In this document: positions 11,340-41,128 of the stretch, piece by piece | Layout of the letters: every line of letters starts with the position of its first letter | Position numbering within the stretch: the stretch's first letter is position 1 | Assembly (NCBI GenBank): GCA_002842085.1 | Contig: PHCA01000041.1 | Span: 1 to 41,162, forward strand | Direction: 5' to 3' | DNA: 41,162 bases | From: Chloroflexi bacterium HGW-Chloroflexi-1 | GTDB lineage: Bacteria > Chloroflexota > Anaerolineae > CG2-30-64-16 | Made by a program: the position numbers and the translations under genes | Notes under the pieces: generated by a model | The model's input: only the letters and a program-made list of their open reading frames with translations | The model's database searches: none | Told to the model about the DNA's origin: nothing

Positions 11340-11340
11340 C

Positions 11341-11627: not shown

Positions 11628-11640
11628 CAAGGTTCTTTGC

Positions 11641-12640: not shown

Positions 12641-12770
12641 CACGGTGACCGGGTGACAAGGTGACATCGAGTAACATCGCTGTGCCTCCTTGTTTACTCT
12701 TGTCTACTTGTCTACTTGCCTACTTATCCCTTGTCTACTTGTCTACTTGTCTACGCGTTTCCTTGTCTCC
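12637..12770. repeat. Paired octamer arrays: (GGTGACAN)x4 (12637-12668) and (CTTGTCTA-like) about 10 units (12689-12770)
   Basis: Read directly. Lies between the convergent HAD and pncC genes. The HAD TGA stop (12638-12640) is inside the first unit. Confidence 0.95.
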
Positions 12771-13731: not shown

Positions 13732-14697
13732 ATGGAACACCTCGAGGTCATCGCCTCGCTGGCCGAGCGAGTGGTCGACAACGTCGAGCACGTGATCATC
13801 GGCAAACGACGCGAGGTGGAGATGACGCTGATCGCGCTGCTGTGCGAGGGGCATCTACTGATCGAGGACGTACCGGGCGTCGGCAAGACGATGCTGGCGC
13901 GCGCGATCGCCAAATCGATCGGCTGCTCGTTCCGGCGCATCCAGTTCACCCCCGACATGCTGCCCAGCGACGTCACCGGCGTCTCGGTGTTCAACCAGAA
14001 GACGCGCGAGTTCGAGTTCCGGCCGGGCCCGGTCATGGCCCAGATCGTGCTGGCGGACGAGATCAACCGGGCCACCCCCAAGACCCAATCGGCCCTGCTG
14101 GAGGCGATGGAAGAGCGCCAGATGACTGTAGATGGCGTGACCTATATCATGGAGAAACCGTTCCTGGTGCTGGCGACACAAAATCCGATCGAATACGAGG
14201 GCACCTTCCCGCTGCCCGAAGCGCAAATCGACCGCTTCATGATGCGGGTGAGCCTGGGCTACCCCGCCAAAGCAGACGAGATTCGCATCCTGGAATCGCA
14301 GCGGGAACATCACCCGATCCAGGACATCGGTCAAGTGGTGACGGCCGCAGAGTTGTTGGCCGCCCAAACCGCGGTGCGCCAAATCTACGCGGACAATCTG
14401 ATCAAGGAGTACATCGTCGATCTGGCCAACGCCACCCGCCACCATCCGGACATTTACCTGGGCGTAAGCCCGCGCGGCAGCCTGGCCCTCTTCAAAACGG
14501 CCCGCGCCTACGCGACCTTGCAAGGCCGCACCTACGTCATCCCGGACGACCTCAAGGCGCTGCTGGCATCGACCTTTGCGCACCGCTTGATCATCAGCCC
14601 GTCGGCGCGCATCAAGAACGTCGAGGCCACCGCCGTCGTCGAGCAGATCGCCGCGTCGGTGCCGGTGCCAGGGACGCGGGTGAGGGCCATACGGTGA
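13732..14697 (+). CDS. moxR: MoxR-family AAA+ ATPase
   Basis: AGGAG lies 8 nt upstream. [33 protein letters not shown] (Walker A), [23 protein letters not shown] (Walker B / sensor), [22 protein letters not shown]. Confidence 0.93.
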
Positions 14698-14767
14698 CAC
14701 GGTGACAGGGTGACAGGGTGACAAGGTGACGGGGTTGTCTACTTGTCTACCTGTTTCCTTGTCTACC
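14693..14767. repeat. Paired octamer arrays: (GGTGACAN)x5 followed directly by (TTGTCTAC-like) x4
   Basis: Read directly. The moxR TGA stop (14695-14697) is inside the first unit. Same unit pair and order as at 12637-12770. Confidence 0.95.
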
Positions 14768-16067: not shown

Positions 16068-16112
16068 GTCCCACCAGCCCGAGCAAGCAGACACGGCCAG
16101 GATACTTGACAC

Positions 16113-16250
16113 GGGGTAAATTGGTAAATTGGTAACGGGGTGAATTGGTAAATTGGTAACGGGGTAAATTGGTAAATTGGTAACGGGGTAAATTGGTAAA
16201 TTGGTGACAGGGTGACCAATCTACCAACCTACCAACCTACCAATCTACCA
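16113..16250. repeat. Hierarchical array: 24-nt unit GGGGTAAATTGGTAAATTGGTAAC x4 (itself built of GGTAAATT octamers), then GGTGACAGGGTGACC, then (CTACCAAY) x4
   Basis: Read directly. Ends at the ATG (16251) of the S8 peptidase. Confidence 0.95.
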
Positions 16251-18218
16251 ATGTCTCACCAAACCCGACAGATCCTGCGCTTGACCGCGGTCGCGGCGAT
16301 CCTCCTGGCGCTCGTGGCAACTGCTACCAGCACCGGTATCAACCTGGCCGCGGCCGGTAGCGGCGCTCCTCGACCGGCGCCCGCTGCGTCTGCGCCCGCT
16401 GCGTCTGCGCCCGACCGCGGCCAACCGGACTGGGCCGCGCCACGCGTGGCAGACCAGTTGCTGGTCAAGCTGCCGGATGGCCAGGCCCTCCCGGACCAGG
16501 CCGCGCTGGCCCGCGCGGGTGTCCGCCTCCTGCGCACCATCCCGCAATTGGGGCTGGCAGTAGTCGCAACGCGGCCCGGCGCCGATCTGGCGGCCTCTGC
16601 TGTCGATCTGGCGGCCTCTGCTGCCGATCTGGTGGATCGCGGCGGGTTCGCGTGGGCCGAGCCCAACTACACCTTCGGCCTGGACCTGGCGCCGAACGAC
16701 CCGGACTACGCCGCGCGCCAGAGCGTCTACCTGGGCCGGATGGGCATGCCCGCGGCCTGGGACCGCACCACCGGCCTCCCCTCGATCATCATCGCGATCG
16801 TAGACACCGGCGTGGACCTGACCCACGAAGATCTCTACAAGGGTATCTGGATCAACCCGGGCGAAGTGCCGGGCAACGGCGTGGACGACGACGGCAACGG
16901 TTTCGTGGACGACGTCAACGGCTGGGATTTCGCGGACAACGACAACGTACCAGACGACGACTACGGCCACGGCACCCATGTGGCGGGCATCGCGGCCGCG
17001 CGCATCGACAACGCCGTGGGTGTTGCCGGCATGGCCGGCGCCGCCACCATCATGCCCGTGGACGTGTTCCCGCACAGCGCCTACGGCACCTACGAGGATT
17101 TGATCCGGGCGATCATCTACGCGACCGACAACGGCGCAAACGTCATCAACATGAGCCTGGGCGCCACTTCCTACAGCCAGGGCGAAGAAGCTGCGGTGGA
17201 CTACGCCTGGTCGCACGGCGTGGTCGTGGTCGCGGCGGCCGGCAACACCGGCCGCTGCTCCTACCACTATCCGGCAGCCCATGTCCACGCGATCGCCGTG
17301 GCGGCCACCGACGCTTACGACAACCTGGCCGGCTTCTCGACCCGCGGCGACTTCGTGGACGTGGCCGCGCCCGGCGTGGGCGTCTGGTCCACCTACCGCG
17401 GCAACCGCTACGGCTCGATGAGCGGCACCAGCATGGCCACGCCGCACGTGTCGGGGCTGGCCGCGCTGATCCTGTCGCTGAACCCGAACCTGACCCCGGA
17501 CCAGGTGCGCACGCTCATCGAGGCCAACGCCGACGACCTGGGCGCGCCCGGCTGGGATCCCGAGTTCGGCCACGGCCGGATCAACGCCGCGCGGGCGTTG
17601 GCCGCCGTGCCCGGCAACACCACGCCGCTGCCCACGCCCACGCCGCATCCGCCGCTGCCCGAGTGGCCGGCCGGCTGCCAGGACCTGCTCGACGATGGCG
17701 ACTTCGAGGCGGGCGCCGCGGTCTGGCAGCCGCACGGGGACGTCACGATCGACGCGCTGCGCGCCTACTCCGGCGCCCACGCCGCGCATTTTCCCGGCGG
17801 GCCGGACACCCGCGGCATCCTGACCCAGACGATCACCCTGCCCCCCTTCCCCCAAGAAGCCACCCTCTGGTTCGCCTACCGCATCGAGAACCAGGATCAG
17901 GGCTGGGGCAGCACGTCCGAAGCGCCCTATGACGACTGGTTCACCGGCGAGTTCCGGGCGGCCGACGGCCGCGTCATCAGCTCACTGCTGCGCACCGGCA
18001 ACTCGGCCGACACCGCGTCCGATGGGCTGCCGTGGGATCGCTATCTGTACCGGATGCAGTTCGCCGATCTGACGGCTTTACGGACGGCCGGCTCAGTGGA
18101 CCTGGTCTTCAGCGCGGGGAACGACGGGGACACGCTGCCCACCGACGTCTGGCTGGACGCGGTGCGCTTCTGCGTCAGGGGCGGGTATGGGTGGATTTTC
18201 CCGGTGATCTTGAAGTAG
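16251..18218 (+). CDS. Secreted subtilisin-family (S8) serine peptidase with a C-terminal CBM-like domain
   Basis: Catalytic triad contexts IAIVDTGVD, GHGTHVAGIAAA, GTSMATPHVSGLAAL. N-terminal TM/signal LRLTAVAAILLALVATA. The C-terminal domain (CQDLLDDGDFEAG...VWLDAVRFCV) resembles the C-terminus of the 6231-8489 hydrolase. The ORF also opens at GTG 16212, inside the repeat array. Confidence 0.92.
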   Translation: MSHQTRQILRLTAVAAILLALVATATSTGINLAAAGSGAPRPAPAASAPAASAPDRGQPDWAAPRVADQLLVKLPDGQALPDQAALARAGVRLLRTIPQLGLAVVATRPGADLAASAVDLAASAADLVDRGGFAWAEPNYTFGLDLAPNDPDYAARQSVYLGRMGMPAAWDRTTGLPSIIIAIVDTGVDLTHEDLYKGIWINPGEVPGNGVDDDGNGFVDDVNGWDFADNDNVPDDDYGHGTHVAGIAAARIDNAVGVAGMAGAATIMPVDVFPHSAYGTYEDLIRAIIYATDNGANVINMSLGATSYSQGEEAAVDYAWSHGVVVVAAAGNTGRCSYHYPAAHVHAIAVAATDAYDNLAGFSTRGDFVDVAAPGVGVWSTYRGNRYGSMSGTSMATPHVSGLAALILSLNPNLTPDQVRTLIEANADDLGAPGWDPEFGHGRINAARALAAVPGNTTPLPTPTPHPPLPEWPAGCQDLLDDGDFEAGAAVWQPHGDVTIDALRAYSGAHAAHFPGGPDTRGILTQTITLPPFPQEATLWFAYRIENQDQGWGSTSEAPYDDWFTGEFRAADGRVISSLLRTGNSADTASDGLPWDRYLYRMQFADLTALRTAGSVDLVFSAGNDGDTLPTDVWLDAVRFCVRGGYGWIFPVILK

Positions 18219-18246: not shown

Positions 18247-18720
18247 CCGTGCTTCATAAATGATTTTTCGGCCCGAAAGTGGGCGACTTTGCGTCATTTG
18301 AATCTTGCAGCTATCCATAGCGCGGCCTCCCGCCGCAACCAAAGGGCTGTCATTGCGAGGGCCTCGCTGTGGCGAGGGCCTCGCTGTGGCGCGAGGAGCG
18401 CCGTTTGCGGTTGCGAGGCACGAAGCAAAGCAATCTCCCTCGCTAACCAGGAAATTGCGGCAATCGAGATTGCGGCAATCTCGATTGCTTCGCAAAACCG
18501 CTCGCAATGACGCCGTTAAAGATTCTCGCTATCAACGCAAATGTCGCTGGGTCATACTATAGCGCGGCCTCCCGCCGCAACCAAACCCCTTTCGTTGAAA
18601 GGCCCTTTCGTTGAAAGGCCCTTTCAACGAAAGGCGTTTTCAACGCAAAGGCACAAAGACGCAAAGAAATCAAAAAGGCCTTTGCGTCTTTGCGTCTTTG
18701 CGTTGAAACCCGGCGAAGCA
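18247..18720. repeat. Composite repeat island (nested direct, tandem and inverted repeats), with no convincing CDS
   Basis: 27-nt perfect direct repeat ATAGCGCGGCCTCCCGCCGCAACCAAA at 18317-18343 and 18559-18585. 17-nt tandem GCGAGGGCCTCGCTGTG x2 (about 18353-18390). 16-nt tandem CCCTTTCGTTGAAAGG x2 followed by its inverse (about 18586-18635). GCAATCnnGATTGC palindromes (18469-18495). CAAAGACGCAAAG / CTTTGCGTCTTTG inverted pair (18653-18700). Confidence 0.85.
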
Positions 18721-20787: not shown

Positions 20788-23700
20788 TCACCCCTCCCCC
20801 ATTGTGGACAGACGTTGTGCAAAGGCCGCGGCCAGAGCGTAGCCATCACCCGACAGCCGGGTCACCTGGCAACCGGCCGCCCGCAACGTCCCCTCCGCGG
20901 TCGCCGCCATCTGATCGCCCACGATGATTACCTCCGCGGCCTGAGCAGCTTCATCCAGGCTGAAGCCGCCGCTGGCCCCGATCCGGCGTAGATAACGCGT
21001 GGCCAATGCCAGCGCCAGGCGCGCTTCCGCGTCCCCGGCCGGCCCGCCCCCGCCTTCGGGCGGTGACCCAAAAAGCAGATAGTGCGCCAAAGGTTTGCGC
21101 GGCCCGGGGGGCAAGTTGATGTCTTGGGTCAACGTGGCGTCCTCGGCCAGGCGGATGTCGGTGACCAGCGGCTCACCATCGCCCGGTGGGCCGCCCACCG
21201 CCAGCGTGTAGACGCCGCCGGCCAATCGAGCGAACCGGAACGCGCCCGCACTGTCGGTCTGCGTCCGGGCGACTTCCTGCCCCTGGCTGAGCAGCAGCAC
21301 CAGGCGGTCGGGTTGAGGCACGCCGTTCGCCAGCACCCGGCCCTGGATCACCCCGCGCGGGCCCGAGCCGCCCCACAACACGTCGCACACCTGTTCCCGC
21401 TGGCCGTCCAACACGATGCCGCCCGCCACCTCGCCCATGCCCGCCGCCTGCAACGAGTAGATACCGGCCGGCAGGTTGGCGAACCGGTACGTGCCGTCGG
21501 CCGCGGTGTGGGCCTGCGTCACGATCAGCCCCTCCCGGCGCAGGATCATCAGGATATCGGGCTGGGGTTTGCCCGCGCCGTCCGCGACCCGGCCGCGGAT
21601 CACGCTGCGCTGGCCCCGGGCCAGGTCGATGGGCGCCAGTTGCAGGCTGTTCTCGCCGGTCAACTCCAGGTCGGGCAAAACCTGATCGGCCACCTCCAGC
21701 CGGTACAGGCCGGGTGGCAAGCCCTCGAACGCGAAGCCCCCGGCGGGATCCAAGGGGGCCTGGCGCGTCCAGCCCCACGCCAGCGGCGCGTAGAGCACCG
21801 CGACCAACCCATCGGGCGGATCCAGGACCCGGCCGCTCAAGCGGCTGCGCAGCGGGAAGATCAGCCGGTAGAGCCCGCCCGCTTCCAGTTTGATTTCGTC
21901 GGCGATGACACCGATCCCGGCCAGCTCCAGCCGATAGCTGCCCGGCGCCAGATCGGGGAAGGCAAAGCTGCCATCTTCGCCCAAGGCCATTTCCTGCGCC
22001 CCGGCGACGCCGGTCAGCTTGATCTTGCGGCCGGGCTGCCCGCCGGGCGCCGACCCTTCGGCTGTGCTCAGGACAAGCCCGTCCAACCGGGTCGGGCTGG
22101 CCACCGTCTGCAAACGGAAATCGACCTGGTAAGTGATCGGCTGGCCGGCGCGGCCGGGCACGTTGGCGGTGTCCAGGTCGTCAGCCACCTCGCTGGGCCA
22201 GTCCCCCTGGATCACCCGGATGCTGAAGACGCCGGGGGTGTTCAGGAACTCATAGCGGCCGGCCGGCTTGATTGGATCGCGGCCGGTGGTCGTGGTCGGG
22301 AAAGTGGCGCCGGGCGCGGCGCTGTGCCAGACCATCTGAAGTTTGATGCCGTTCAGCGGCACACCGTCGATGTCCGATACCGTGCCGTAGAAAAGGCGTC
22401 GCCCGGCGGTCTCGGCTTCAGGTAACAGGCGCCGCTGGGTGACCGCGTACCGATACCCGGCCGGCGTCCCGGTGGTGAGCTTGATGTTCTTGGTCGCCCA
22501 TCCATCCAGGGCGATCCCCGCCACGGTGATGCCCGGGATCGAGAGTTTGTAGCTCCCCAGTGGCAGGCCCGAGAACCGAAAACCGCCATCGGCGTCGGTG
22601 AGGGTCTCGCCGATCGATGCGCCCCGCGATGGGCCGCCATCTCGCCACAATGTCACGGGGATGCCCGCGCGCGGGGCGTCGGTGTAATCCAGAACCTTGC
22701 CGGTCAGTGCGCTGCTGCGGCCGCCGGCCAACCGGATAAGAACCGGCAACCCGGGCTCCGGCGCGGCGGTCACCCCCCGGCGCACGATGCCCCAAGGCGC
22801 CACGGCCAGATCGTAGATGCCCGGCGTCAAGCGCTCCAGGCGAAACGCACCATCGTCTGCCGACGTCGCGCTGGCGACGACCTGATCCCCGGCCCGGAGA
22901 TCGACCTGCAAGCTGGGCAGCGGCTCATCGGTGTCGGCGCGCAGCAATTGGCCGGCCACCACAGCCTGTTTGATCTGCGGCGCCACCTGGCTGGGCATGG
23001 CCTTGACGGCCGCCACCACCGGTAACTCACCGCTCAAGTTGAAGTCGGTGTTCCACCAGTCGCTGTACCAGGACTGGCTCTCCCAGCCGGGCGCCATGAA
23101 GCCCAGGCGGTAGTTGCCCAACAGCCAGTAACACATGGTAAAGTAACTGTCCGGACAACGGATGCCGTGAATCTCCCGACCGCCCTGCATGAAGTCGTTG
23201 ATCGCGACGACCCACCCGGCATGCGTCGTCGGATCCAGCCGGGGATAGCGTTGATCGTCCTTCCAGCCTACCACCGGTCCGCCTTCGGTGCTGATGATCG
23301 GCACTGTGTGGCCCAGGGTCTGGAAGAGCATGTCGTCCATCAGATAAAACGCCAGGAAACAGGTCGCATCATCGACCAGGGTATCCCCGGGGTTCTTATC
23401 CGCCGCTCGCCACTGGTTGATCAGCTCGCGGGGGCGGCCCTCCCAGGCCCACGGCCCGAGCCGGTCGTACTCCTCCTGACTCACCGGCACGCCCTCCTGG
23501 TTGACGCTGTCGTAGGGATAGTCGAGCGGGTGATTGAGGGTGTAGTTGTGGATGGCCACCCACGCGCCCTTGTCGAACAGGTCGGCGCGGCCCTTATCCA
23601 CGACGCGCTGCACGGGGTTGAATCGGCTGCTGATCCCCATCGCCGGCAGCGCGGGCAGACCACCCAGGGCGATGACCTTATCCGCGTCGATGATGAAATT

Positions 23701-24090
23701 GTCGATGACGACGTCGAGCCAGTCGGCGGGCATGCGGCCGTTCTTCCATTCAGCGGACAGGTCCGGCTCGTTGTTAGTCTCGAAGTAGCGCACCCCGGCA
23801 TCGATCAACTGCCTGAGGGCGGCCTCTTCCCGCCCGCCGATGTGGCCGGGATTGGGCTCCAACCGGTAGAGCCGCACGATGGGCATGATGTCGGCGACCA
23901 GCAACCGCCGGCACAACTCCAGCGACGACCCGCCGCCATCGTCCATCAACTTGATCCACTTGATGTGCATGGCTTGGAGCTCGCTGATCCAAAAGTCCAA
24001 CGCCGCGCCGGTGGGGTGATAGACCGACGCGGACCAGTGGACGCCGCGCCGGTTATCGTCTTTGGGACGGGGGAAATCTTCGATGCGCAT
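20788..24090 (-). CDS. Signal-less GH-like TIM-barrel protein with about 8 carboxypeptidase-regulatory-like repeats and the shared C-terminal module
   Basis: ATG 24090 with AGGAGG 6 nt upstream. N-terminal domain with YFETNNEPD and PIISTEGG (clan GH-A-like acid/base and nucleophile contexts). Repeats such as DADGGFRFSGLPLGSYKL. C-terminal segment KPLAHYLLFGS...GFSLDEAAQAAEVIIVGD. The ORF stays open upstream to 24267 through the repeat array. Confidence 0.8.
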   Translation of the reverse strand: MRIEDFPRPKDDNRRGVHWSASVYHPTGAALDFWISELQAMHIKWIKLMDDGGGSSLELCRRLLVADIMPIVRLYRLEPNPGHIGGREEAALRQLIDAGVRYFETNNEPDLSAEWKNGRMPADWLDVVIDNFIIDADKVIALGGLPALPAMGISSRFNPVQRVVDKGRADLFDKGAWVAIHNYTLNHPLDYPYDSVNQEGVPVSQEEYDRLGPWAWEGRPRELINQWRAADKNPGDTLVDDATCFLAFYLMDDMLFQTLGHTVPIISTEGGPVVGWKDDQRYPRLDPTTHAGWVVAINDFMQGGREIHGIRCPDSYFTMCYWLLGNYRLGFMAPGWESQSWYSDWWNTDFNLSGELPVVAAVKAMPSQVAPQIKQAVVAGQLLRADTDEPLPSLQVDLRAGDQVVASATSADDGAFRLERLTPGIYDLAVAPWGIVRRGVTAAPEPGLPVLIRLAGGRSSALTGKVLDYTDAPRAGIPVTLWRDGGPSRGASIGETLTDADGGFRFSGLPLGSYKLSIPGITVAGIALDGWATKNIKLTTGTPAGYRYAVTQRRLLPEAETAGRRLFYGTVSDIDGVPLNGIKLQMVWHSAAPGATFPTTTTGRDPIKPAGRYEFLNTPGVFSIRVIQGDWPSEVADDLDTANVPGRAGQPITYQVDFRLQTVASPTRLDGLVLSTAEGSAPGGQPGRKIKLTGVAGAQEMALGEDGSFAFPDLAPGSYRLELAGIGVIADEIKLEAGGLYRLIFPLRSRLSGRVLDPPDGLVAVLYAPLAWGWTRQAPLDPAGGFAFEGLPPGLYRLEVADQVLPDLELTGENSLQLAPIDLARGQRSVIRGRVADGAGKPQPDILMILRREGLIVTQAHTAADGTYRFANLPAGIYSLQAAGMGEVAGGIVLDGQREQVCDVLWGGSGPRGVIQGRVLANGVPQPDRLVLLLSQGQEVARTQTDSAGAFRFARLAGGVYTLAVGGPPGDGEPLVTDIRLAEDATLTQDINLPPGPRKPLAHYLLFGSPPEGGGGPAGDAEARLALALATRYLRRIGASGGFSLDEAAQAAEVIIVGDQMAATAEGTLRAAGCQVTRLSGDGYALAAAFAQRLSTMGEG

Positions 24091-24108
24091 AGGATCCTCC
24101 TGGCGTGT

Positions 24109-24231
24109 TATGGTATGGTATTGGGTATTTGGGTATTGGGTATTGGGTATTGGGTATTTGGGTATTGGGTATTTGGGTATTGGGTATTTGGGTATTGGGT
24201 ATTGGGTATTGGGTATTTGGGTATTGGGTGT
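24109..24231. repeat. Tandem array of TGGGTAT / TGGGTATT units, about 16 units; minus-strand sense is (A)ATACCCA
   Basis: Read directly. Lies between the minus-strand TATAAT box (24289-24284) and the RBS/ATG at 24090. Confidence 0.95.
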
Positions 24232-24258
24232 GTGAGACCGCATGATGCTCCGGGTGAC

Positions 24259-24292
24259 GTCGCTCACAATGTGAGTCGCTCACATTATAACA
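24259..24292 (-). promoter_or_regulatory. Extended -10 promoter TGTTATAAT (minus strand, 24292-24284) plus direct repeat GTCGCTCACA x2 (24259-24268, 24275-24284; 16-nt period), a possible operator
   Basis: Perfect TATAAT with TGn. The minus-strand start region reads GTGAGCGACTCACATTGTGAGCGACGTCAC and contains the palindrome GTGAG-CGA-CTCAC. Confidence 0.55.
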
Positions 24293-24493
24293 CAATTTGA
24301 AATGGGCGCAATTGCTTATCTCCCTGGGGATGTATCTTCTCGATTTTCCGGGGGATCGCTGGCTGTGGCCGGATTATCGAAAGGATATCTGGGGACCATT
24401 ACCGCCCCGCATCACCAGCCCCATTCACGGGGCGTCGCTCTTGAGCCCGGCGGCTTTAGCGCCGGGCGACCGCGCGCCGGGCGGCCAGCCATC

Positions 24494-27067: not shown

Positions 27068-27075
27068 AGTGGCGG

Positions 27076-29628: not shown

Positions 29629-29728
29629 GTGGTGCGTAGTGCGTGGTGCGTGGTGCGTATTCCGTAGCCCATGTCTGCACATTTTCCGCAGTACGCAATC
29701 CGCAATTCGCAATCCGCAATCCGCAATC
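29629..29728. repeat. Two heptamer arrays: (GTGGTGC) x5 (29629-29663) and (CGCAATC) x5 (29694-29728)
   Basis: Read directly. Lies between SH3b lipoprotein paralogs 2 and 3. The second array ends 2 nt before the AGGAGG RBS. Confidence 0.93.
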
Positions 29729-29746
29729 CAAGGAGGAAGACAAGCA

Positions 29747-30688
29747 ATGCACTTTCGTTTCTGGGCCTTGATCATTATTGTGATGCTGTTGGTGGCCGTT
29801 GCTGGATGCGCTGGCGGCCAGTCGAGCGTCGCGCCGACGCCGGTTCCAACCAAGACGTTACGGCCGATATTCACCGCTACGCCCGCAGTGCCGACCCCCG
29901 TGCCGCCCACGGCCACACCGCAGATCCCGCCCACGGCCACCCCGGAGCCAACCGCGGCCGAACCACCCACGCCCGAACCGCCGACCGCGGCGCCGGCTAC
30001 GGCCACACCTCAACCGGCGTCGTTCACCGTGACCAGCGCCACCGTCAACATCCGTAACGGGCCCGGGACCAACTACGTTCGGATCGGGCAAGTGCGCCAA
30101 GGCCAGACGTTCGAGATCACGGGCAAGAACCCGGCCGGCGATTGGTGGCGATTCGACTACAACGGCAAAATTGCCTGGGTTATCGGCCGGCTGGTCAGCG
30201 CCAACGCGACCGGGAGCGTCCAGGTAGCGTCCGACATCCCGGCCCCGCCGCCCACCGCGCGGCCGCAGCCGACGGCCAAACCCGCGACCGCCCAACCGAC
30301 CCCGCCGCCCGCGCCGCCGCTACGGTTCGCGCTCACGGGCAAATCGCAACTGCGGCTCAACACCAACGATTTTGTGACCGTCTGGTGTTTCGTCTTCAAT
30401 CGGTCCGAGACCGCCCTGGTCCCCGGTACATTGCGCGTCACGCGCGATGGGGCTGTCATCAAAGAGCAAGCCTTCACCGGAGGACTCGAGTCAGCGCACG
30501 GCGATCCGGGCATTTCGGGCAGCGAGTTTCTCTACAATCCAGGCTGCAAGGTCGAAATCCAGCCGGCCCAGGACGGCAACTACAGCGCCTATCTGATCCA
30601 GGGTGGCCAGCAAGCCTCTGACGTCTTCAATTTCAACGTCAGCGGCACGACCAACCGGACCGCGATCATCGAATGGAAAGAGAAGTAG
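29747..30688 (+). CDS. Lipoprotein: PT-rich linkers, SH3b domain, C-terminal domain (paralog 3 of 3)
   Basis: AGGAGG (29731-29736) lies 10 nt upstream of the ATG. MHFRFWALIIIVMLLVAVAGCAG (lipobox VAGC). SH3b-like VNIRNGPGTNYVRIGQVRQGQTFEITGKNPAGDWWRF. Confidence 0.78.
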   Translation: MHFRFWALIIIVMLLVAVAGCAGGQSSVAPTPVPTKTLRPIFTATPAVPTPVPPTATPQIPPTATPEPTAAEPPTPEPPTAAPATATPQPASFTVTSATVNIRNGPGTNYVRIGQVRQGQTFEITGKNPAGDWWRFDYNGKIAWVIGRLVSANATGSVQVASDIPAPPPTARPQPTAKPATAQPTPPPAPPLRFALTGKSQLRLNTNDFVTVWCFVFNRSETALVPGTLRVTRDGAVIKEQAFTGGLESAHGDPGISGSEFLYNPGCKVEIQPAQDGNYSAYLIQGGQQASDVFNFNVSGTTNRTAIIEWKEK

Positions 30689-33624
30689 GGACGGCTATCG
30701 GTCGCCAGAAACCAGGTTTCTCTAAGAAACCTGGTTTCTGGCAACGAGCAAGTGCGATCCGGTTTCGGCGCGAAGCCGGGTTTTTGATCTTGGTCGCCCT
30801 GCTTGGATTGCTCCTGCGCGTCCTCCGCCTGGATTTTCAGCCCCTCTGGTGGGACGAAGGCTATTCCGTCTGGTTCGCCACCCACCCGCTGGGCCAGATG
30901 GCCGCGCTGACGGCCCAGGACATCCACCCGCCCCTCTACTACGCGCTGCTCCACGGCTGGACTACCCTGCTGGGGACCGGGCCGATCGCGTTGCGGCTGA
31001 TGTCCGTGGCCTTCGGCGCGCTGGCGATCCCCGCGATCTACCTGGCCGGGCGACGATTGCTGAACCGGCGGGCCGCCCTCCTGGCCGCCTTGCTGTTGGC
31101 GATCAACCCCCTGCACATCTACTACAGCCAGGAAGTGCGCATGTACGGGCTGGTGGCGCTACTGAGCGCGGGGATCCTGGCGACGATCGGGGGGTGGGCG
31201 AATTGCCGATTTCGGATTTCGGATTTCGGATTTCGAATTACTCCTTGTCACCAGCCCCGCACGGTGTTAGCGGCTGGCGCCAGGCCGGTCACCTTGTCAT
31301 CAGTCCCCTACGTGCTCCTGGCGACCGCCGCGCTGTACACGCAGTATTATGCCGTTTTCCTGCCGGTCGGCCTGACGCTGTACGCGCTGTGGCGGTGGCG
31401 GCGCGATCCGGCCGCGCTGGGGCGGTGGCTGGCCGCACAGATTGCCGTCGCCGTGCTCTACCTGCCGTGGGTGATCTATGCGGCGCCCAGGCTGGCGCCC
31501 TACGTCAGCCAGAAGGTGGTGGCGGACGCTGACAGGCCGCTCGGGTTGTTAGCCTACTTTGGCCGGCACCTGGCCGCGTTCCTGGCCGGCCACCTGGAAG
31601 GCCCGCTGACCGCATGGTGGCCGGTTGTGCTGGCGCCGATAGGGATATCAGGTATTTGGTATTGGCGTTGGTGGAAAGTTGGCCGGCGCAGCGGAAATTC
31701 AGCCCATCCAATACCTGATACCCAATACCCAATACCCAATACCCAATACCCAATACCCAATACCCAATACCCAATACCCAATACCCAATACCCGGTCATG
31801 CTCGCCACTGTCACCGGCGTCGCGCTCCTGCTCGGCTGGCTCATCGGCCTCACCTACCCATTCTTCCCGGAGCGAGGCGAGCGATTGCTGTTGCTGGCGC
31901 TACCGCCGTTCATCCTTCTGGTCGCGGCCGGGCTGGATGCGCTGTGGTCGCGGTCGCGGCTGGCTGCCTGGGGCACAATCGCGCTGATCGGCGCGGTCGC
32001 CGGGGCGGGCCTGTGCGCGTTCTACACGACGCCCCGCTACCCCACCGACGACTACCGGCCGCTGATCGCCCACACGGTCGAGCTGGGTTTGCCCGAGGAC
32101 ACCGTCTTCTGCGTCTACCCGTGGCAGGTCGGCTACTGGCGTAGCTATGACTGGCGTAGCTATGCCAGTAGCCGACCTGCCGGCCCGAACGCCGTCCTGA
32201 CCCCCGACGCGACCTGGTCCCCGGCCGTGTCGGACGTGAACGCCTGGTATGGGCCGGGCACCCGGCTCAGCGCGTGGGCGTTCGCGCCGGGAGGGCAGCC
32301 CGTGAACGCGGCCACCGTGCGTTTCCCGCTGCCTGGCGTTGGCGCGGTGAAACTGGTAGGCGTCACGGCCGCGCTCGATCCCGTGCCCGCTGCGAACGCG
32401 GTGACGCCGGTCACGTTGCGTTGGGCCGCGGCCGCGCCGCCGCCGATCCTGGGTGTCAGCGTTCGTCTGGTCGATGACCTGGGCCAGATTTGGGCGCAGC
32501 ACGATTACGAGCCGCTGGGCGGCCTCTCCGCTCCGGCACAAACCAGCGCGCAGGGCACATCATCGGCAGAAGCCTGGCAAGCGGCCTGGGAGGCTGAGGA
32601 TCGCCTGGGCCTGCTCATCCCCGCGGGCACACCGCCCGGACGCTACGCGGTCGAACTGGCCGTGCGCCCAAAGGACGAGGCTCGCTCGCTGGACGCGTTT
32701 ACCCCCGCTGGCGTCGCACTGGGCCCAGCGGTCCCCCTGTTCGAGATCACCGTTGCCCCGGCGGACCGGGTCCTGGGTCGGGAGCGCCTGCCCATCGGCG
32801 TCAACCGATCGACCGACATGGAGGACGGCTTGCGTTTCCTCGGCTACAGCGCGGCCGAGGCCGTGGCCACGCCGGGTGAGCTGCGCAAGATCAGCCTCTT
32901 CTGGCAGACCACCGCCGCGCTGGCGGCCGACTACACGGCTTTCGTACAACTGCTGGACGCGGATGGCGGGGTGGCGGCCGGTTGGGAAGCGCCGCCCGGC
33001 GCCGGTTACCCGACGACGCAGTGGGCGCCGGACACGCTGGTCCGCACCCAGGCCGCGTTCCGGGTCCCCGCGTCCCTACCCGCCGGCCGCTACCGGCTGA
33101 TCGCGGGCCTGTTCAACCCGGCCGATGGCGCGCGCTTGCGGACAGCCGCTGGCGCCGACCATCTGGCCCTGGGCCCGATCACCCTGCGCGGCCGGCCCCA
33201 CGAGATGACCCCACCTGGCCCGGCCCACGTCGCGGACGTGCGCTTCGGGGACGTGGGCCGGCTGGTTGGCTATGATCTGCCCGAGACCGGCAGTGCGGCC
33301 GGCGCGGCGCTGCCACTCACCCTGTACTGGCAGGCAACCGGTGCGACCGACCGGGCATACACCATATTCGTGCACCTGCTGGACCCGGCCGGCGCGCTCC
33401 GCGGCTTCGGGGATGGCGAGCCGGGCGGGGGTCAGTTCCCCACCACGGGCTGGCTGCCCGGGGAGTACCTGGCCGACCGCCACGAGGTCCGCATCGTCGC
33501 GGACGCGCCTCCTGGCGAGTATCGATTAGCCGTCGGCCTGTACGACCCCGCGACCGGCCAGCGGCTGCTCACGGCCGACGGGGCGGATCAGGTGGTGCTG
33601 GACATCTCGGCGCCAATCCGATAA
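30673..33624 (+). CDS. Membrane glycosyltransferase, family 39 (ArnT/PMT-like), with a large duplicated C-terminal extracytoplasmic domain; start uncertain
   Basis: LRVLRLDFQPLWWDEGYSVW...DIHPPLYYALLHGW is the usual GT39/PMT_2 N-terminal signature, with many TM segments. ATG 30673 overlaps the upstream gene, and a 17-bp hairpin (30705-30741) lies after it. An alternative TTG at 30784 would start just before TM1. Confidence 0.82.
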   Translation: MEREVGTAIGRQKPGFSKKPGFWQRASAIRFRREAGFLILVALLGLLLRVLRLDFQPLWWDEGYSVWFATHPLGQMAALTAQDIHPPLYYALLHGWTTLLGTGPIALRLMSVAFGALAIPAIYLAGRRLLNRRAALLAALLLAINPLHIYYSQEVRMYGLVALLSAGILATIGGWANCRFRISDFGFRITPCHQPRTVLAAGARPVTLSSVPYVLLATAALYTQYYAVFLPVGLTLYALWRWRRDPAALGRWLAAQIAVAVLYLPWVIYAAPRLAPYVSQKVVADADRPLGLLAYFGRHLAAFLAGHLEGPLTAWWPVVLAPIGISGIWYWRWWKVGRRSGNSAHPIPDTQYPIPNTQYPIPNTQYPIPNTQYPVMLATVTGVALLLGWLIGLTYPFFPERGERLLLLALPPFILLVAAGLDALWSRSRLAAWGTIALIGAVAGAGLCAFYTTPRYPTDDYRPLIAHTVELGLPEDTVFCVYPWQVGYWRSYDWRSYASSRPAGPNAVLTPDATWSPAVSDVNAWYGPGTRLSAWAFAPGGQPVNAATVRFPLPGVGAVKLVGVTAALDPVPAANAVTPVTLRWAAAAPPPILGVSVRLVDDLGQIWAQHDYEPLGGLSAPAQTSAQGTSSAEAWQAAWEAEDRLGLLIPAGTPPGRYAVELAVRPKDEARSLDAFTPAGVALGPAVPLFEITVAPADRVLGRERLPIGVNRSTDMEDGLRFLGYSAAEAVATPGELRKISLFWQTTAALAADYTAFVQLLDADGGVAAGWEAPPGAGYPTTQWAPDTLVRTQAAFRVPASLPAGRYRLIAGLFNPADGARLRTAAGADHLALGPITLRGRPHEMTPPGPAHVADVRFGDVGRLVGYDLPETGSAAGAALPLTLYWQATGATDRAYTIFVHLLDPAGALRGFGDGEPGGGQFPTTGWLPGEYLADRHEVRIVADAPPGEYRLAVGLYDPATGQRLLTADGADQVVLDISAPIR
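30705..30741 (+). terminator. Perfect 17-bp hairpin CCAGAAACCAGGTTTCT-CTA-AGAAACCTGGTTTCTGG (no U-tract)
   Basis: Read directly. Lies 17 nt after the stop of SH3b paralog 3 and inside the longest GT39 ORF. Confidence 0.5.
31207..31241 (+). repeat. Heptamer array (GGATTTC) x5 inside the GT39 CDS
   Basis: Read directly. Translates as ..NCRFRISDFGFRIT.. within the open frame. Confidence 0.9.
31710..31793 (+). repeat. Heptamer array (AATACCC) x12 (10 perfect units) inside the GT39 CDS
   Basis: Read directly. 84 nt = 28 codons, translating as [30 protein letters not shown]. Confidence 0.95.
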
Positions 33625-36063: not shown

Positions 36064-36108
36064 GAAAAATCATTTGTGAAACGCAAAGCACGTTCGGGCA
36101 CTTGCAGG

Positions 36109-36140
36109 TTACTCATTACTCGTTACTCGTTACTCGTTAC
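36109..36140. repeat. Heptamer array (TTACTCG) x4-5
   Basis: Read directly. On the minus strand it is (GTAACGA)n and starts 2-3 nt after the guaA TAA stop. Confidence 0.9.
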
Positions 36141-36142
36141 AT

Positions 36143-37804
36143 TTACTCCCACTCGATCGTCGCGGGCGGCTTCGAGCTGATGTCGTAGACCACCCGGTTG
36201 ACCCCGGACACTTCGTCGACGATGCGATTGCTCACCTTTGCCAGCAGGTCGTAGGGCAGACGCGCCCAATCGGCGGTCATGAAATCGTCGGTGGTGACGG
36301 CGCGCAGGCCGATTGTGTCGGCATAGGTGCGGCCGTCCCCCATCACGCCAACAGAGCGCACCGGCAGCAGTACAGCGAACGCCTGAGACGTGGCCCGGTA
36401 CAGCCCGGCGGCCCGCAACTCCTCCAGGAAGATGGCATCGGCGGCGCGCAGCGTCTCCAGCCGCTCCCCCGTGACCTCGCCCAGGATGCGGATGGCCAGC
36501 CCCGGCCCGGGGAACGGGTGCCGCCAGACGATCTCCTCCGGCAAGCCCAGCGCGGCGCCCACGGCCCGCACCTCGTCCTTGAACAGATTGCGCAGCGGCT
36601 CGATGAGCTGGAAGGTCATGTCCTCAGGCAGTCCGCCGACGTTGTGATGCGTCTTGATCGTGCGCGCGGTGCCCTGTTCCGCGCGGCTGGCCGACTCGAT
36701 CACGTCGGGGTAGAGGGTGCCCTGGGCCAGGAAAGTGGCGTGTGTGCCGCAATTGCTGCGCAATTGCTTAGAAGCGCCGCTCTGTTCGCCCGCGATCAGG
36801 GCCTCGGTGATCTCGAACGTCCGCACGAACCGCGCTCCGATCCGCTTGCGCTTGACCTCCGGGTCGGTCACCCCGGCCAGGTCGGCCAGGAACTCCTCGC
36901 TGGCCTCCACCGTGATCAACTGCATGCCCATGTGCTGCTCGAAAGTCTCGACGACCTGCTCGGCCTCATCCTGGCGCAGCAGCCCATGGTCCACGAAGAT
37001 ACACGTGAGCCGGTCCCCCACCGCCCGGTGGATCAACGTCGCCGCGACCGCGGAATCCACCCCGCCGCTCAACCCGCAGACCACCGACCCGCCCCCGACC
37101 TGGGCGCGAATCTCCGCCACCGCCTCCGCGATGAAGTTGGCCGGCGTCCAATCCGGCGTGCAACCGCAGATATCTACCGCAAAATTGCGCAGGATGTCCC
37201 GGCCCTGCGGCGTGTGCTGGACCTCGGGGTGGAACTGCACGCCGTAGATGCCGACCGCCACGTTGCCCATGGCCGCGATGGTGGCTCTTGCGGGCATGGG
37301 GTACTGGGTATTGGGTATTGGGTATTGGGTATTGGAGACGGCCAGCGGAACGAAGGACGGCGGCAGGGCGGTCACGTGGTCGCCGTGGCTCATCCAGACG
37401 GCTAATGGCAGATTGCAGATTGCAGATTGCAGATTGGTAAAGAGCGGATTGGGAGCATCGGTCAAGGTGATTTCGGCAGGGCCGTATTCGCGACGGGCGG
37501 CGGGGTCAACGGCGCCGCCGAGGGCGCGGGCCAGCAGTTGCATGCCATAGCAAATACCTAATACCGGTTTCCCCGCGGCCAGGACGAACGGCGGCAGGGT
37601 CGGCGCACCCGGCTCGTAGACGCTGGCCGGGCCGCCGGAGAGGATATAGCCCTGCGGATCGAGGCCAGCGAACCGCTCCGCGGGCGCGTCCCACGGGATC
37701 AGCTCGCAGTAGACGTGCTGCTCGCGCAGCCGCCGTGCGATCAGTTGGCTGGTCTGCGAGCCGTAGTCGAGGATGGCGATGGTGTCGTGGGCTGCCTGGC
37801 TCAT
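36143..37804 (-). CDS. guaA: GMP synthase (glutamine-hydrolysing)
   Basis: [30 protein letters not shown] (GATase). LSGGVDSAV (PP-loop), [40 protein letters not shown] (C-terminal end). ATG 37804 overlaps the upstream stop (ATGA). Confidence 0.95.
37295..37336 (-). repeat. Heptamer array (AATACCC family, plus strand TATTGGG) x6 inside the guaA CDS
   Basis: Read directly. 42 nt, translating as [14 protein letters not shown], just upstream of the conserved YGVQFHPE block. Confidence 0.93.
37408..37435 (-). repeat. Heptamer array (plus strand GCAGATT) x4 inside the guaA CDS
   Basis: Read directly. Translates as NLQSAICNL, immediately before the conserved WMSHGD. Confidence 0.93.
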
Positions 37805-38139
37805 GGCGCCGCGTCTCCCGCGTCGAGCGTCTCTGCGCGCCATTCCGGCGCTTCCTCGCGCACGGCGACCCGTGCGGCTGTGGTCAGCGCGCGCAAAGGG
37901 TAATGGCGGAGCAGGTGAATGGAGTAGCCGGTTTTGACCAAAGTATCTATCTGCTTTTGCCCCATACTATCCACGGCATTTAGGATGGCGTCATCATCCC
38001 AGAAATCCTGGCTGGGCGCCATCATGCAGATGTCCGCAGATTGCCGGCCACCAGGATAGGCCTCCAGTTTCACACCGGGAAGCCGAGTCTGGAGGTCGCG
38101 CATGAACTCGTCAACCATCATCTGGAGTTTCTTGTTCAT
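37801..38139 (-). CDS. Small protein coupled to the HEPN gene; possibly a degenerate minimal-nucleotidyltransferase-like partner
   Basis: ATGA start/stop overlaps at both ends (38136-38139 and 37801-37804). Lower GC than its surroundings. [20 protein letters not shown] loosely parallels the GS..G....SDIDLLV motif of MNT proteins, but the second Asp is missing. Confidence 0.45.
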
Positions 38140-38528
38140 CGTAGCTGCACCTCAACAGCGGACACCAAAACCCTGGTCTTCTGAAGGGCATGCTGCGCCA
38201 CCTTGCGACTGGTGGCAGACACGGTGTAATCAGCGATTCTTCGGATGTCGAAGATTTGTGGGAGTAGCGGCGCCAGATCGGCCGGATACAATTTCCGCCG
38301 ATGAACCAGCACGCCGGAAAAGCGCGCCTGGACGAAGTCGTGCTCCCATTGGCCCCGTCCGCCTGCCGGTCGGACACTCGCGGCGATCAGCGCGACAACC
38401 GCGGCCTGGAACATGGCGTAGTAGCAACGGTTGGCGCAGTTGTTGTAGCGCCCGTCGGTAAACTCGCTCTCGGCGCCGGTCAGGCTCTCGGTCGCTTCGA
38501 TCAGATAGGCCAGGCAATCAGCATCCAT
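38136..38528 (-). CDS. HEPN-domain protein
   Basis: ATG 38528 with GGAG about 10 nt upstream. GRYNNCANRCYYAMFQAAVVALIA ... IFDIRRIADY matches the HEPN (PF05168-type) helix pattern as I know it. Confidence 0.78.
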   Translation of the reverse strand: MDADCLAYLIEATESLTGAESEFTDGRYNNCANRCYYAMFQAAVVALIAASVRPAGGRGQWEHDFVQARFSGVLVHRRKLYPADLAPLLPQIFDIRRIADYTVSATSRKVAQHALQKTRVLVSAVEVQLR

Positions 38529-39120: not shown

Positions 39121-40203
39121 TCAAGACACCCCTCTCGTCTTCGACATTTGCCAATGCACCTCGGGATCCCGCCAATGTCGCAGCCGCCAGACCCACCCGG
39201 CCGGGTAGCCGACCATCTTCGCCACGTCGCCCACCGCGCGGATGGCCGGGATCAGCGCAATGGCCCGGAGCTGGTCGACGGGGGCGAGATTGAGCAGGTG
39301 GGCGTGCAGCCGGCGGAAGGGGGTGCGGCAGTAGACGACGGCGCCGCCGGCCAATCCCAGCAACCATAGCGGGCTGTGGGCGATGCTCAAGATCAACACG
39401 GCAGGCAGGGCAACGAGATACGTGGCATAACGGATGGCGTGGCGCTTCCGCCAGAGGTCGGCCTTGCCATCGCCACGGGCGTAGCGGTAGTATTGCTTGA
39501 AGTAAGCGCGCATGGAGCCCCGCGGCCGGAAATGGGCCACCGCGCCCGGCGCCCACACGAAAGGCCCGGTCGCGTCTTGCAACCGGAAGTCAAAGATCAG
39601 GTCCTCGCAGTAGTCCAGCCACTCCGGGTAGCCACCCGCGGCCGCCCACGCCTCCTTGCGAAACGCCACCGACCGGCTGGATGGCAGGAAGGCGCCTGGA
39701 TCGACGTCACCGATCGCTGGCAACACCGTCGCGCCCATCGCAGCCTCGAACGGGGTCTGCGGGTCGGGGACGAAGAAGCCGGCGACGGATTGGGGATTGG
39801 GGATTGCGGATTGCGGATTGCGGATTGCGGATTTGCGATTTGCCGATTGGTCGATTTGCTGATTCGCTGATTCGCTGATTTGCCCGCTTTCCAACGGCGC
39901 GACCAACGCAGCGAGCCAGGCTGGCTCCAACCACACCCCCGCGTCGGTGGATGCGATCACGTCGCCGGTGGCAGTCCGGATGGCCACGTTGCGGCCGCGG
40001 GAGATGTTGGCGCCTGGTTCGATCAACACGCGCAGCTTCAGCCGGTCCGCGTACGATTCGATCACCGCGACGGTGTTATCGCGCGAGCCGCCGTCCACGA
40101 TCACGACCTCGTCGGGTTGCCGGGTTTGAGCCACCAGGCTGTCCAGCATCCGGCGGATCGATTCCCCTTCGTTGAGCACGGTACAAATGACGCTGACGCG
40201 CAA
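39121..40203 (-). CDS. Family 2 glycosyltransferase with C-terminal TM segments
   Basis: TTG start with GGAG upstream. VSVICTVLNEGESIRRMLDSLVAQT....EVVIVDGGSRDNT...ISRGRNVAI......IASTDAG (GT2 DxD-type core). Confidence 0.85.
   Translation of the reverse strand: MRVSVICTVLNEGESIRRMLDSLVAQTRQPDEVVIVDGGSRDNTVAVIESYADRLKLRVLIEPGANISRGRNVAIRTATGDVIASTDAGVWLEPAWLAALVAPLESGQISESANQQIDQSANRKSAIRNPQSAIPNPQSVAGFFVPDPQTPFEAAMGATVLPAIGDVDPGAFLPSSRSVAFRKEAWAAAGGYPEWLDYCEDLIFDFRLQDATGPFVWAPGAVAHFRPRGSMRAYFKQYYRYARGDGKADLWRKRHAIRYATYLVALPAVLILSIAHSPLWLLGLAGGAVVYCRTPFRRLHAHLLNLAPVDQLRAIALIPAIRAVGDVAKMVGYPAGWVWRLRHWRDPEVHWQMSKTRGVS
39787..39884 (-). repeat. Degenerating 7-8 nt array (plus strand GGATTGG/GGATTGC/GATTTGC/GATTCGCT) inside the GT2 CDS
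   Basis: Read directly. Translates as SGQISESANQQIDQSANRKSAIRNPQSAIPNPQS between GT2 core segments. Confidence 0.9.
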
Positions 40204-40285: not shown

Positions 40286-41128
40286 CTACAACCATACTTC
40301 ATCGCCGATGTCATGCTGAGGTATCATCTCAATAATCCGGGGTGGCTGTGGCCGGTCTCCTGACCGAGCCACCGTGGGCGACAGGCGAACGGCGGACCGC
40401 ACCGCGATCACTGCGCACATGGCCTCCGTCATTCGCCCATTCGCCCCTGCCACCCACGCATCGGCGGTCTGATGGTCATCCTCCAGGTGCAATTCGTGGA
40501 TCGTGTGCTCCAGCGCGACCACCCGGCCGGCCAGGTTGCGGAGCATGTCCATGTTCGGGTCGGGGAGCCGGTCGTGCTGGAGATCCTCCCGGTTCGGCTC
40601 GACGACGCGCTCACCGTTCAGCACCTTGAACCGGCCGGGGACACCCACCACCACCGAGTTTGGCGGGACGTCTTGGACCACCACCGAGTTGGCGCCGACG
40701 CGACTGTGTGCGCCGATGGTGATCGGCCCGAGGATCTGCGCGCCCGCGCCCACCACTACGTGATCCTCCAGCGTGGGATGCCGCTTGACCCTGGCCCAAC
40801 TGACCCCACCCAAGGTGACGTTGTGGTAGAGGGTCACGTTGGCGCCGATCTCGGCCGTCTCGCCGATCACCGTGCCCATGCCGTGGTCGATGAACAGGCC
40901 CGGTCCGATCTGCGCGCCCGGGTGGATCTCGATGCCGGTGAACCCGCGCGCGCAGTGGCTGACCGTCCGACCCAGCAGGAAGAACCCATTGTGCCACAGC
41001 AGATGGGCCAGCCGGTGCAGCCAGACAGCGTGCAGCCCCGGGTACAGCAGCAATACCTCGGCCACGCTTCGGGCTGCCGGGTCACGGTCAAAGACAGCCT
41101 TCAAATCGGCGCGTAGCGTAGCAAACAT
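40286..41128 (-). CDS. cysE: Serine O-acetyltransferase with an unusual C-terminal tail
   Basis: AAGGAGG lies upstream of the [39 protein letters not shown]...[25 protein letters not shown], and hexapeptide repeats. Confidence 0.9.
40321..40372. repeat. Half copy (left half including outer arm) of the palindromic element
   Basis: GTATCATCTCAATAATCCGG-GGTG-GCTGTGGCCGGTCTCCTGACCGAGCCAC corresponds to the reverse complement of 33686-33735. Lies inside the 3' end of the cysE ORF. Confidence 0.85.

Follow-up and report, generated by a model that had tools for sequence, protein, structure and literature searches.

How does a gene for a housekeeping enzyme come to carry tandem repeats of a seven-nucleotide unit, in frame, inside its catalytic domain, and what keeps them there? 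This question is raised by guaA, the gene encoding glutamine-hydrolysing GMP synthase, in a stretch of 41,162 nucleotides (nt) of contig PHCA01000041.1 (hereafter the window), which has a G+C content of 65.6% and comes from the metagenome-assembled genome (MAG) of Chloroflexi bacterium HGW-Chloroflexi-1, a groundwater member of the Chloroflexota. An earlier note on this DNA had described two heptamer arrays in the gene and read them as repeats that appear to have invaded a housekeeping coding sequence. We consider it likely that they are old, inherited heptanucleotide repeats of the kind described as long simple sequence repeats (LSSRs, long SSRs) or short tandemly repeated repetitive sequences (STRRs), which would be maintained by slippage and filtered for reading frame and loop tolerance.

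The guaA coding sequence is located on the minus strand, from 37804 to 36143, and encodes 553 amino acid residues; the open reading frame (ORF) extends further, to 37843, upstream of the start Met, which is shared by all homologs. Its product and P0001 (PKO23192.1, from Chloroflexi bacterium HGW-Chloroflexi-1) are identical. According to Pfam it contains the GATase, NAD_synthase and GMP_synt_C domains, and the closest solved structures are the GMP synthases 5tw7 (E = 4.5e-182) and 1gpm (E = 1.7e-176), both aligned over the full length. All motifs are kept: GICYGMQ with the catalytic Cys85 of the amidotransferase (37538-37558, minus strand), YGVQFHPE with the catalytic His192 and Glu194 within QFHPE (37223-37246, minus strand), the SGGVDS P-loop and the C-terminal KPPATIEWE. 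By these domains and motifs the product is a glutamine-hydrolysing GMP synthase, with the Cys-His-Glu triad of class I amidotransferases, the P-loop of the ATP pyrophosphatase and the C-terminal dimerisation domain. L085 and L086, from two other assemblies, match the guaA DNA of the window at 100% identity but differ from the window outside guaA by single-nucleotide polymorphisms and indels, and the guaA tracts are therefore not assembly artefacts. The three assemblies are the HGW-Chloroflexi-1 MAG, ERZ27239245 and GCA_017973855.1.

Tandem Repeats Finder, the Pfam domains and the motif positions confirmed that two heptamer arrays lie in frame in the glutamine amidotransferase domain of this intact gene, as the earlier note had claimed. 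The first (site 1) is (AATCTGC)x4 on the sense strand (37405-37436, minus strand), with the codons AAT CTG CAA TCT GCA ATC TGC AAT CTG, which encode NLQSAICNL (residues 124-132); it is followed by PLAV and, four residues after the array, by the conserved WMSHGD block (37379-37396, minus strand), which separates both arrays. Tandem Repeats Finder delimits site 1 at 37408-37436, with period 7, 4.1 copies, 100% matches and the plus-strand unit GCAGATT. The second (site 2) reads C(CAATACC)x4 + CAGTACC + CCATGCC on the sense strand (37292-37338, minus strand), with the codons TCC AAT ACC CAA TAC CCA ATA CCC AAT ACC CAG TAC CCC ATG CCC, which encode 15 residues; Tandem Repeats Finder delimits it at 37299-37335, with period 7, 5.3 copies, 96% matches and unit GGGTATT. 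It had been described as six AATACCC-type units, a count that stands, although only four are perfect CAATACC and two are degenerate (CAGTACC and CCATGCC). Both arrays consist of head-to-tail units in the 5-11-nt range and are longer than expected by chance, as in heptanucleotide long SSRs.

The two sites differ in what they add to the protein. From the W of WMSHGD to QFHPE there are 53 residues in the GuaA of the window, in comparison with 38-39 in 115 of 129 close homologs and 37-39 in 109 of 109 control metagenome guaA loci, among the matches listed. These controls came from a metagenome scan with the 23-mer TGGATGAGCCACGGCGACCACGT, whose matches were unrelated GC-rich guaA genes and served as negative control. 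Hence site 2 is a derived insertion that adds a net 14-15 residues, which nearly all homologs lack, in agreement with the insertion of about 14 residues that the earlier note had given for it, and the array makes up most of an inserted 18-residue loop (residues 157-174, 37283-37336). Site 1, which had also been taken for an insertion site, is not longer than the same segment of Escherichia coli GuaA, though it exceeds the nearest array-free Chloroflexota relatives by about 5-6 residues (d1 of 31 vs 25-26). In an AlphaFold2 model of the protein (mean predicted local distance difference test, pLDDT, of 77; predicted template modelling score, pTM, of 0.78), site 2 falls in a coil (159-173) between the strands 152-158 and 174-181, with pLDDT below 50 at residues 160-166 and 168-170, and the insertion is predicted to lie in a beta-hairpin loop. 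Site 1 comprises the end of a helix (120-126) and a coil (127-133) with block-mean pLDDT of 73-80; both placements are in line with the reading of the earlier note.

The DNA of nine relatives was retrieved for allele comparison. At site 1, P0002 and P0108 show (AATCTGC)x4, as in the window, P0121 shows a (CTTCATC)x4-type array, P0032 shows (AACCTCC)x3.4, and P0004 shows (AGGGATC)x6 followed by (AGCATCC/AGCTTCC)x8, which makes its site 23 residues longer. P0017 shows a perfect (GCTTCCA)x2.9 that encodes PASSFQL, a motif that in a more or less degenerate form (for example in P0009) is common to more than a dozen homologs, and its AGCTTCC unit is included in the P0004 array. Site 1 of P0003 is made of degenerate AACCTGC/AACCGGC units and that of P0005 is decayed. 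Arrays thus occupy site 1 throughout a broad clade, within which protein identity is 75-86%. The units of the window, P0032, P0003 and P0121 are variants of a local heptamer, A/G-A-Y-C-T-N-C, formed by the Asn/Asp-Leu codons at the left edge of the site; that the units of four lineages vary on this ancestral heptamer argues for growth in place.

At site 2, the CAATACC unit of the window has a decayed counterpart in P0005, while P0002, P0121 and P0004 show about six CAACCTC units and P0108 exactly three. The insert is absent from P0003 and from all other homologs. In trees of the GATase domain, generated by the neighbor-joining method on p-distances with the array sites masked and without support values, the carriers of the insert form one clade with P0003 as its sister, which is consistent with a single origin. 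Whole-unit changes in copy number between related sequences, the signature of slippage, appear in two comparisons: P0108 has three site-2 units in relation to the six of P0002, being 21 nt shorter between the same flanks, and P0017 has three AGCTTCC-type units at site 1 in relation to the eight of P0004. The first of these is the three-unit variant that the earlier note had predicted. Its further claim, that only frame-preserving, stop-free states are retained, holds for every allele seen: all of the approximately 14 guaA alleles are intact, in frame and free of stop codons. By contrast, a recent arrival from the non-coding arrays, which its word 'invaded' suggests, is not borne out, since both sites have long been array-bearing in related lineages and no features of a mobile element accompany the repeats. 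In L088, a 21-kb locus of the P0004 lineage, three heptamer arrays are found in guaA and none over the other ~19 kb, in comparison with about 14 heptamer arrays per 21 kb in the window's genome; guaA sites therefore stay repetitive even in an array-poor locus.

Alleles also differ by more than copy number. The contigs of P0002 and P0121 are 99.5% identical, and 25 of their 33 differences fall inside a 112-nt tract centred on site 1. When the guaA of the window (36143-37804) was compared with L081 and L084, nt 1 to ~400 of the gene, including the site-1 array, were 86-96% identical to P0002, with the exception of one 120-nt segment at 81%, while the part from ~nt 590 on (~1070 nt) was 86-97% identical to P0003, mostly 0.88-0.97; the site-2 region was close to neither. 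The guaA of the window is thus a recombinant mosaic with a switch in the array region. Together, these tracts indicate that homologous recombination moves array alleles between lineages, and in both events the tract ends coincide with arrays.

Arrays are not confined to guaA. Under a strict criterion of at least three copies, the window contains 13 heptamer and four octamer arrays, none of period 5, 6 or 9-12, and one of period 4, which is the chance level. When the window was simulated 100 times with a first-order Markov model, arrays of period 7 or 8 never arose, in comparison with the 13 and four observed, and the dimer CAATACCCAATACC, with an expected count of 0.00, was found 16 times. Addition of weaker Tandem Repeats Finder rows to the strict set gives 23 arrays. 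A gene map was built from the G+C content of third codon positions (GC3) and the gene calls on L085. Intergenic DNA makes up ~12% of the window on this map and contains about 17 of the 23 arrays, which are ~18-fold denser there than in coding DNA. The other six belong to three coding sequences: guaA, a gene for a PMT_2 membrane protein (30673-33624) and a gene for a glycosyltransferase family 2 (GT2) protein (39121-40203). The in-frame array phenomenon is therefore not specific to guaA or to housekeeping genes, and in the PMT_2 and GT2 genes, too, the arrays lie in segments without conservation among orthologs.

The PMT_2 gene shows (CCAATAC)x12 in frame (31708-31793, plus strand), with the unit of guaA site 2, and it encodes (NTQYPIP)n, the same peptide as site 2; a second in-frame array, (GATTTCG)x4.6, is found at 31202-31239. 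Both are placed in linker segments not conserved in the ortholog of L212. In the GT2 gene, AATCCGC arrays and an octamer lie in frame in a hypervariable site (39786-39884, minus strand). This segment has ~35 residues and shows array-derived sequence at the same place in four lineages whose protein is otherwise 67-74% identical; the array-derived sequence at this position differs in the orthologs of L212, L089 and L090. With the array peptide (NTQYPIP)x6 as query, the matches were 12 short hypothetical proteins and nothing else, which is no gauge of how widespread in-frame arrays are.

These results suggest the following course of events. Heptamer and octamer arrays would fill the genome, mostly between genes, and those that arise in genes would persist only when the unit is free of stop codons in any frame, the total length keeps the frame and the peptide falls in a loop that tolerates insertions. 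Site 1 would have been array-bearing since the ancestor of a broad Chloroflexota clade and site 2 since that of a narrower one. Copy number would then shift by replication slippage, with survivors that are net multiples of 3 nt, one of them by exactly three units; units would be replaced through a point mutation in one copy followed by contraction and re-expansion; some lineages would decay to non-repetitive sequence; and homologous recombination would swap alleles between lineages, its tracts ending within arrays or beside them. The array-encoded peptides probably have no sequence-specific role, and the guaA arrays would be tolerated, presumably neutral passengers that carry a latent risk of frameshift.

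Several points weigh against this account. The units CAATACC, CAACCTC and CAGCATC recur at unlinked loci, which local slippage does not predict, and the site-2 unit has no visible local precursor in relatives free of the insert. An identical four-unit allele is found in lineages with different flanks, a strange finding if the tract is unstable as supposed. The three near-clonal assemblies of the window's own population are identical in guaA and show no copy-number polymorphism there, so it is from the relatives that we infer ongoing slippage. Finally, the trees that order the alleles are neighbor-joining trees on p-distances, without support values.

The recurrence of units is extensive. Within 41 kb, CAATACC is found at three loci (guaA site 2, 24117-24229 and 31708-31793) and accounts for four of the 13 heptamer arrays, which is very unlikely by chance given ~1170 possible canonical units. 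According to the earlier note, the guaA units occurred in non-coding arrays elsewhere in the window; this applies to the site-2 unit at 24117-24229, in a 5' untranslated region (UTR), but the array at 31708-31793 is coding, and the exact site-1 unit AATCTGC is found nowhere else in the window. The latter has relatives with one mismatch, CATCTGC at 11339-11565 and AATCCGC at 29685-29729 and 39787-39833, and the [A/C]ATC[T/C]GC family occupies five loci, counted in the 41 kb only. Thus, within these 41 kb a few heptamer units form arrays at many unlinked loci, as in a dispersed family. Among the relatives, CAACCTC is the unit of site 2 in P0002, P0004, P0108 and P0121; it also occurs at site 1 of P0032, and L087 has it as an inverted pair directly upstream of guaA. 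Site 1 of P0032 and site 2 of P0108 have the 25-nt string CCAACCTCCAACCTCCAACCTCTAA in common. CAGCATC is found both in the guaA of P0004 and in an intergenic array of the window's genome (L085, 5183-5217).

A limited repertoire of heptamers could have been actively copied between loci, by ectopic gene conversion, by template switching at stalled forks or breaks, or by a dedicated enzyme, so that the guaA arrays, or at least site 2, were installed from elsewhere, close to what the earlier note had supposed. Unit sharing far above chance at unlinked loci (CAATACC, CAACCTC, CAGCATC and the string CCAACCTCCAACCTCCAACCTCTAA) and the missing precursor of site 2 both favor such dispersal. When same-unit arrays were compared for common flanks, terminal (inverted) repeats and target duplications, however, none were found, and therefore nothing indicates a mobile element; by these features the arrays do not appear to be miniature inverted-repeat transposable elements or other small dispersed repeats. 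The match of the site-1 units to the ancestral local heptamer and the single origin of the site-2 insert suggested by the GATase tree also argue against it, and the restriction of the L088 arrays to guaA fits inheritance better than continuing genome-wide seeding. We regard dispersal as unlikely overall, yet the recurrence of units at unlinked loci that have no flanks in common keeps it, or conversion, a live rival. A more specific form, to which we give slightly less credence still, is that the arrays of this Chloroflexota clade are not passive products of slippage and are spread by sequence-biased copying (array-to-array conversion, template switching or a dedicated enzyme). Such copying would place the same small set of units at many loci, the loops of essential enzymes among them, would make the arrays uniform again and would turn these loops into recombination hotspots, with the guaA sites as long-lived landing pads; if true, this copying would point to a new kind of non-autonomous repeat element.

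Phase-variable genes are known from Haemophilus and Neisseria. Since every one-unit change of a 7-nt unit in an ORF shifts the frame, guaA might likewise be switched ON and OFF by frameshift, with guanine-starved, slow-growing subpopulations as the outcome. The presence of a non-triplet SSR in an ORF, in which one unit shifts the frame, is indeed shared with the contingency loci of pathogens (PMC3315296, PMC2651432). There are two or three arrays in the one gene, the sites have been repetitive over long evolutionary times, and the contig L213 is interrupted within the site-1 array, perhaps because its population is heterogeneous. Unlike the contingency loci, however, guaA encodes a housekeeping enzyme of a free-living groundwater host, no OFF alleles were seen, and its arrays are internal, ~120-175 codons into the gene rather than near the 5' end, with low copy numbers (3-8 units). 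One candidate for a frameshifted OFF allele, P0134 (404 aa, from the Met of WMSHGD), was rejected as a contig-end artefact, as its contig simply begins inside the site-1 array. All recovered alleles are in frame, with no frame-switching difference in unit number among them; guaA is identical in the three assemblies of the window's strain, and similar arrays are found in ordinary loops of other genes. A contingency role of guaA is thus very improbable.

A selected function of the tracts themselves deserves, if anything, marginally less weight. The loops could modulate amidotransferase-synthetase coupling or partner binding, or the DNA could act as a nucleic-acid signal, such as a G-quadruplex (G4) or a pause site for transcription or translation. 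The plus strand of site 2, (GGGTATT)n at 37292-37329, fits the predicted G4 motif G3N1-7 x4 by sequence, in P0004 the sense strand of site 1 includes (AGGGATC)n, heptamers of the GGGNATC type form G4 in Xanthomonas and Nostoc with a preference for about four units (PMC4692102), and the sites persist in lineages that are otherwise array-poor. On the other hand, site 1 of the window and the CAACCTC alleles do not fit the motif of four G3 tracts, and neither strand of CAACCTC or AATCTGC contains a G3 tract. Like G-richness, the peptides are not conserved between alleles: site 2 reads NTQYPIP in the window vs NLQPPTS in relatives, and site 1 reads NLQSAIC vs PASSFQL or HPSSLLL. In addition, P0005 and P0003 are decayed and non-repetitive and P0003 has no site-2 insert, yet the gene is intact in both. 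As a separate observation, the G-rich strand of every CAATACC array of the window fits (G3N1-7)x4: 37292-37329 (+), 24123-24228 (+) and 31721-31793 (-); in guaA it is the template strand.

An artefact, whether of assembly or through a decaying guaA copy beside a clean one elsewhere, is scarcely credible: although the source is a MAG, the array at 40430-40446 differs between assemblies (two vs 13 units) and the window is without 114 nt that the others have, guaA is 100% identical in three assemblies, its arrays (32-47 nt) are well within read length, orthologs from other samples have arrays at the same codons, and the catalytic motifs are intact within highly conserved flanking protein and conserved synteny.

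Heptanucleotide repeats of bacteria, such as STRRs and long SSRs, have been known since about 1990; their origin and function are not agreed, and mostly intergenic copies in single genomes have been described. Vioque (1997, as cited in PMC2858038) reportedly found STRRs inside the cyanobacterial gene for RNase P RNA. The cyanobacterial STRRs resemble the repeats studied here in that heptamer arrays from few unit families occupy many loci, with an insertion in an essential gene at a structurally tolerant position. They are unlike them in that the STRR case is an RNA gene without frame constraint, while the guaA arrays are protein-coding and involve other units and another phylum. The units of the window differ from the unit sequences of STRR1-3, and the host belongs to the Chloroflexota, so the arrays are not assigned to the cyanobacterial STRRs.

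Heptanucleotide units dominate the long SSRs of large GC-rich genomes, for which polymerase slippage was proposed by Mrazek, Guo and Shah (2007), according to the summaries of that work in PMC4679880 and PMC4692102. As described in these summaries, LSSRs share with the present arrays the perfect or near-perfect repetition, the predominance of heptamers, a GC-rich genome, the large number of mostly intergenic arrays and the proposed slippage; what sets the present arrays apart is that they are translated in frame as part of a housekeeping enzyme's catalytic domain, and that different units occupy the same loops across diverged lineages. Heptamer repeats are also enriched in the non-coding DNA of Xanthomonas and Nostoc (PMC4692102). 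The GGGNATC-type repeats of these genera have period 7, about four units and a position near ORF ends, some as inverted pairs, as here, where (GGGTATT)n and (AGGGATC)n fit the G4 motif (PMC4692102). However, they are reported as under-represented in coding regions, and most units here (AATCTGC, CAACCTC) have no G3 tract; G4 is predicted in our arrays from the sequence motif. The TAACTGA repeats of marine Beggiatoaceae are likewise abundant heptamer arrays, mostly intergenic and upstream of starts, with few in ORFs as a 7-residue periodic peptide (PMC4679880), but they consist of one dominant unit with stop codons in one orientation, and the cases in ORFs are mostly at the termini, whereas here many units occupy loops within conserved domains. 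No account of heptanucleotide repeats in Chloroflexi came up in a literature search, and the phylum is absent from the sources consulted.

Under the reading of old, inherited arrays that we favor, orthologous array sites become traceable across lineages in a slowly evolving, easily aligned enzyme. The perfect, unit-replaced, three-unit, decayed and array-free sister alleles would form a natural time series of the birth, turnover and death of a non-triplet repeat under frame constraint, and this series could help to decide whether slippage is enough to explain why units recur across loci. The alleles also show that GMP synthase loops tolerate 7-36 extra residues, which may be useful for protein engineering. 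For annotators, 7-residue periodic peptides in conserved enzymes of these MAGs should be taken as real and not as assembly errors.

Further features were noted in guaA and its surroundings. A third lineage-specific insert of 10 residues (345-354, 36743-36772) is found in a variable loop of the ATP pyrophosphatase domain and is absent from P0003, the nearest relative over that half of the gene. It holds an 11-nt tandem duplication (AGCAATTGCGC x2) and no heptamer array, and other relatives show unrelated inserts in this loop. The string GCAATTGC in the insert was considered as an iterated palindrome similar to HIP1 and rejected as not enriched: it occurs three times vs 1.09 expected, and 13 of 100 shuffles reach three. 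The guaA relative P0095 shows (HHDVV)n, a 15-nt expansion of its N-terminus, and another, P0123, has a mis-called N-terminal extension, (SPILNPQ)n, that reads through upstream heptamer arrays. Between a phosphoribosyltransferase gene and guaA lie a HEPN-domain gene (38136-38528) and an ORF of 112 aa (37801-38139); the pair overlaps the guaA start by 4 nt and has a toxin-antitoxin-like look, and L212 shows the same arrangement. On the other side of the gene, (GAGTAAC)x4.7 (36108-36140, minus strand, Tandem Repeats Finder) begins 2 nt past the guaA stop codon. Its unit resembles the last codon and stop of guaA (GAGTAA), and GAGTAAC forms another array ~6 kb off in opposite orientation (L085, 5349-5385).

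An intergenic array with 32 copies of GCAGATG in 227 nt (11339-11565, plus strand, Tandem Repeats Finder) has as its complement CATCTGC, one mismatch from the site-1 unit. The stop codon of the gene 8946-11339 marks the beginning of the array, and (AATCGCA)x5 comes after it at 11586-11619; judged by GC3, the long antisense ORF that crosses the array (9711-11780) is spurious. The gene 20788-24089 has in its 5' UTR the CAATACC/CAAATACC array of ~15 units (113 nt, 24117-24229, minus strand), with a TATAAT-like box before the array and the Shine-Dalgarno sequence (AGGAGG) and ATG after it. This UTR (24089-24300) comprises, in order, the TATAAT-like box, a direct repeat TTGTGAGCGAC x2 with an operator-like look, the array, AGGAGG and ATG. 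A candidate rule of orientation, by which the C-rich strand would always be the sense strand of the host or downstream gene, was discarded, as the arrays 11339-11565 and 31202-31239 run opposite according to GC3 gene calling. Octamer arrays form adjacent inverted pairs, for example (ACGCAAAG)x3 followed by (CTTTGCGT)x3, at 12637-12768, 14689-14766, 16111-16252 and 18643-18703; they are usually found right behind a stop codon, would form long hairpins of tandem units and may act as terminators.

Several differences between the window and the otherwise near-identical assemblies were noted. About 64 non-repetitive nt of L085 are missing from the window at 27068-27073. The PMT_2 gene of the window (~32223-32235) lacks 114 nt (38 codons) that both L085 and L086 contain, and relative to L212 there is a corresponding gap of 38 residues; this may be a real in-frame deletion or an assembly collapse. 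The octamer array GCGAATNN at 40430-40446 shows two units in the window and 13 in L085 and L086, and it is the only array that differs between the assemblies in the compared region.

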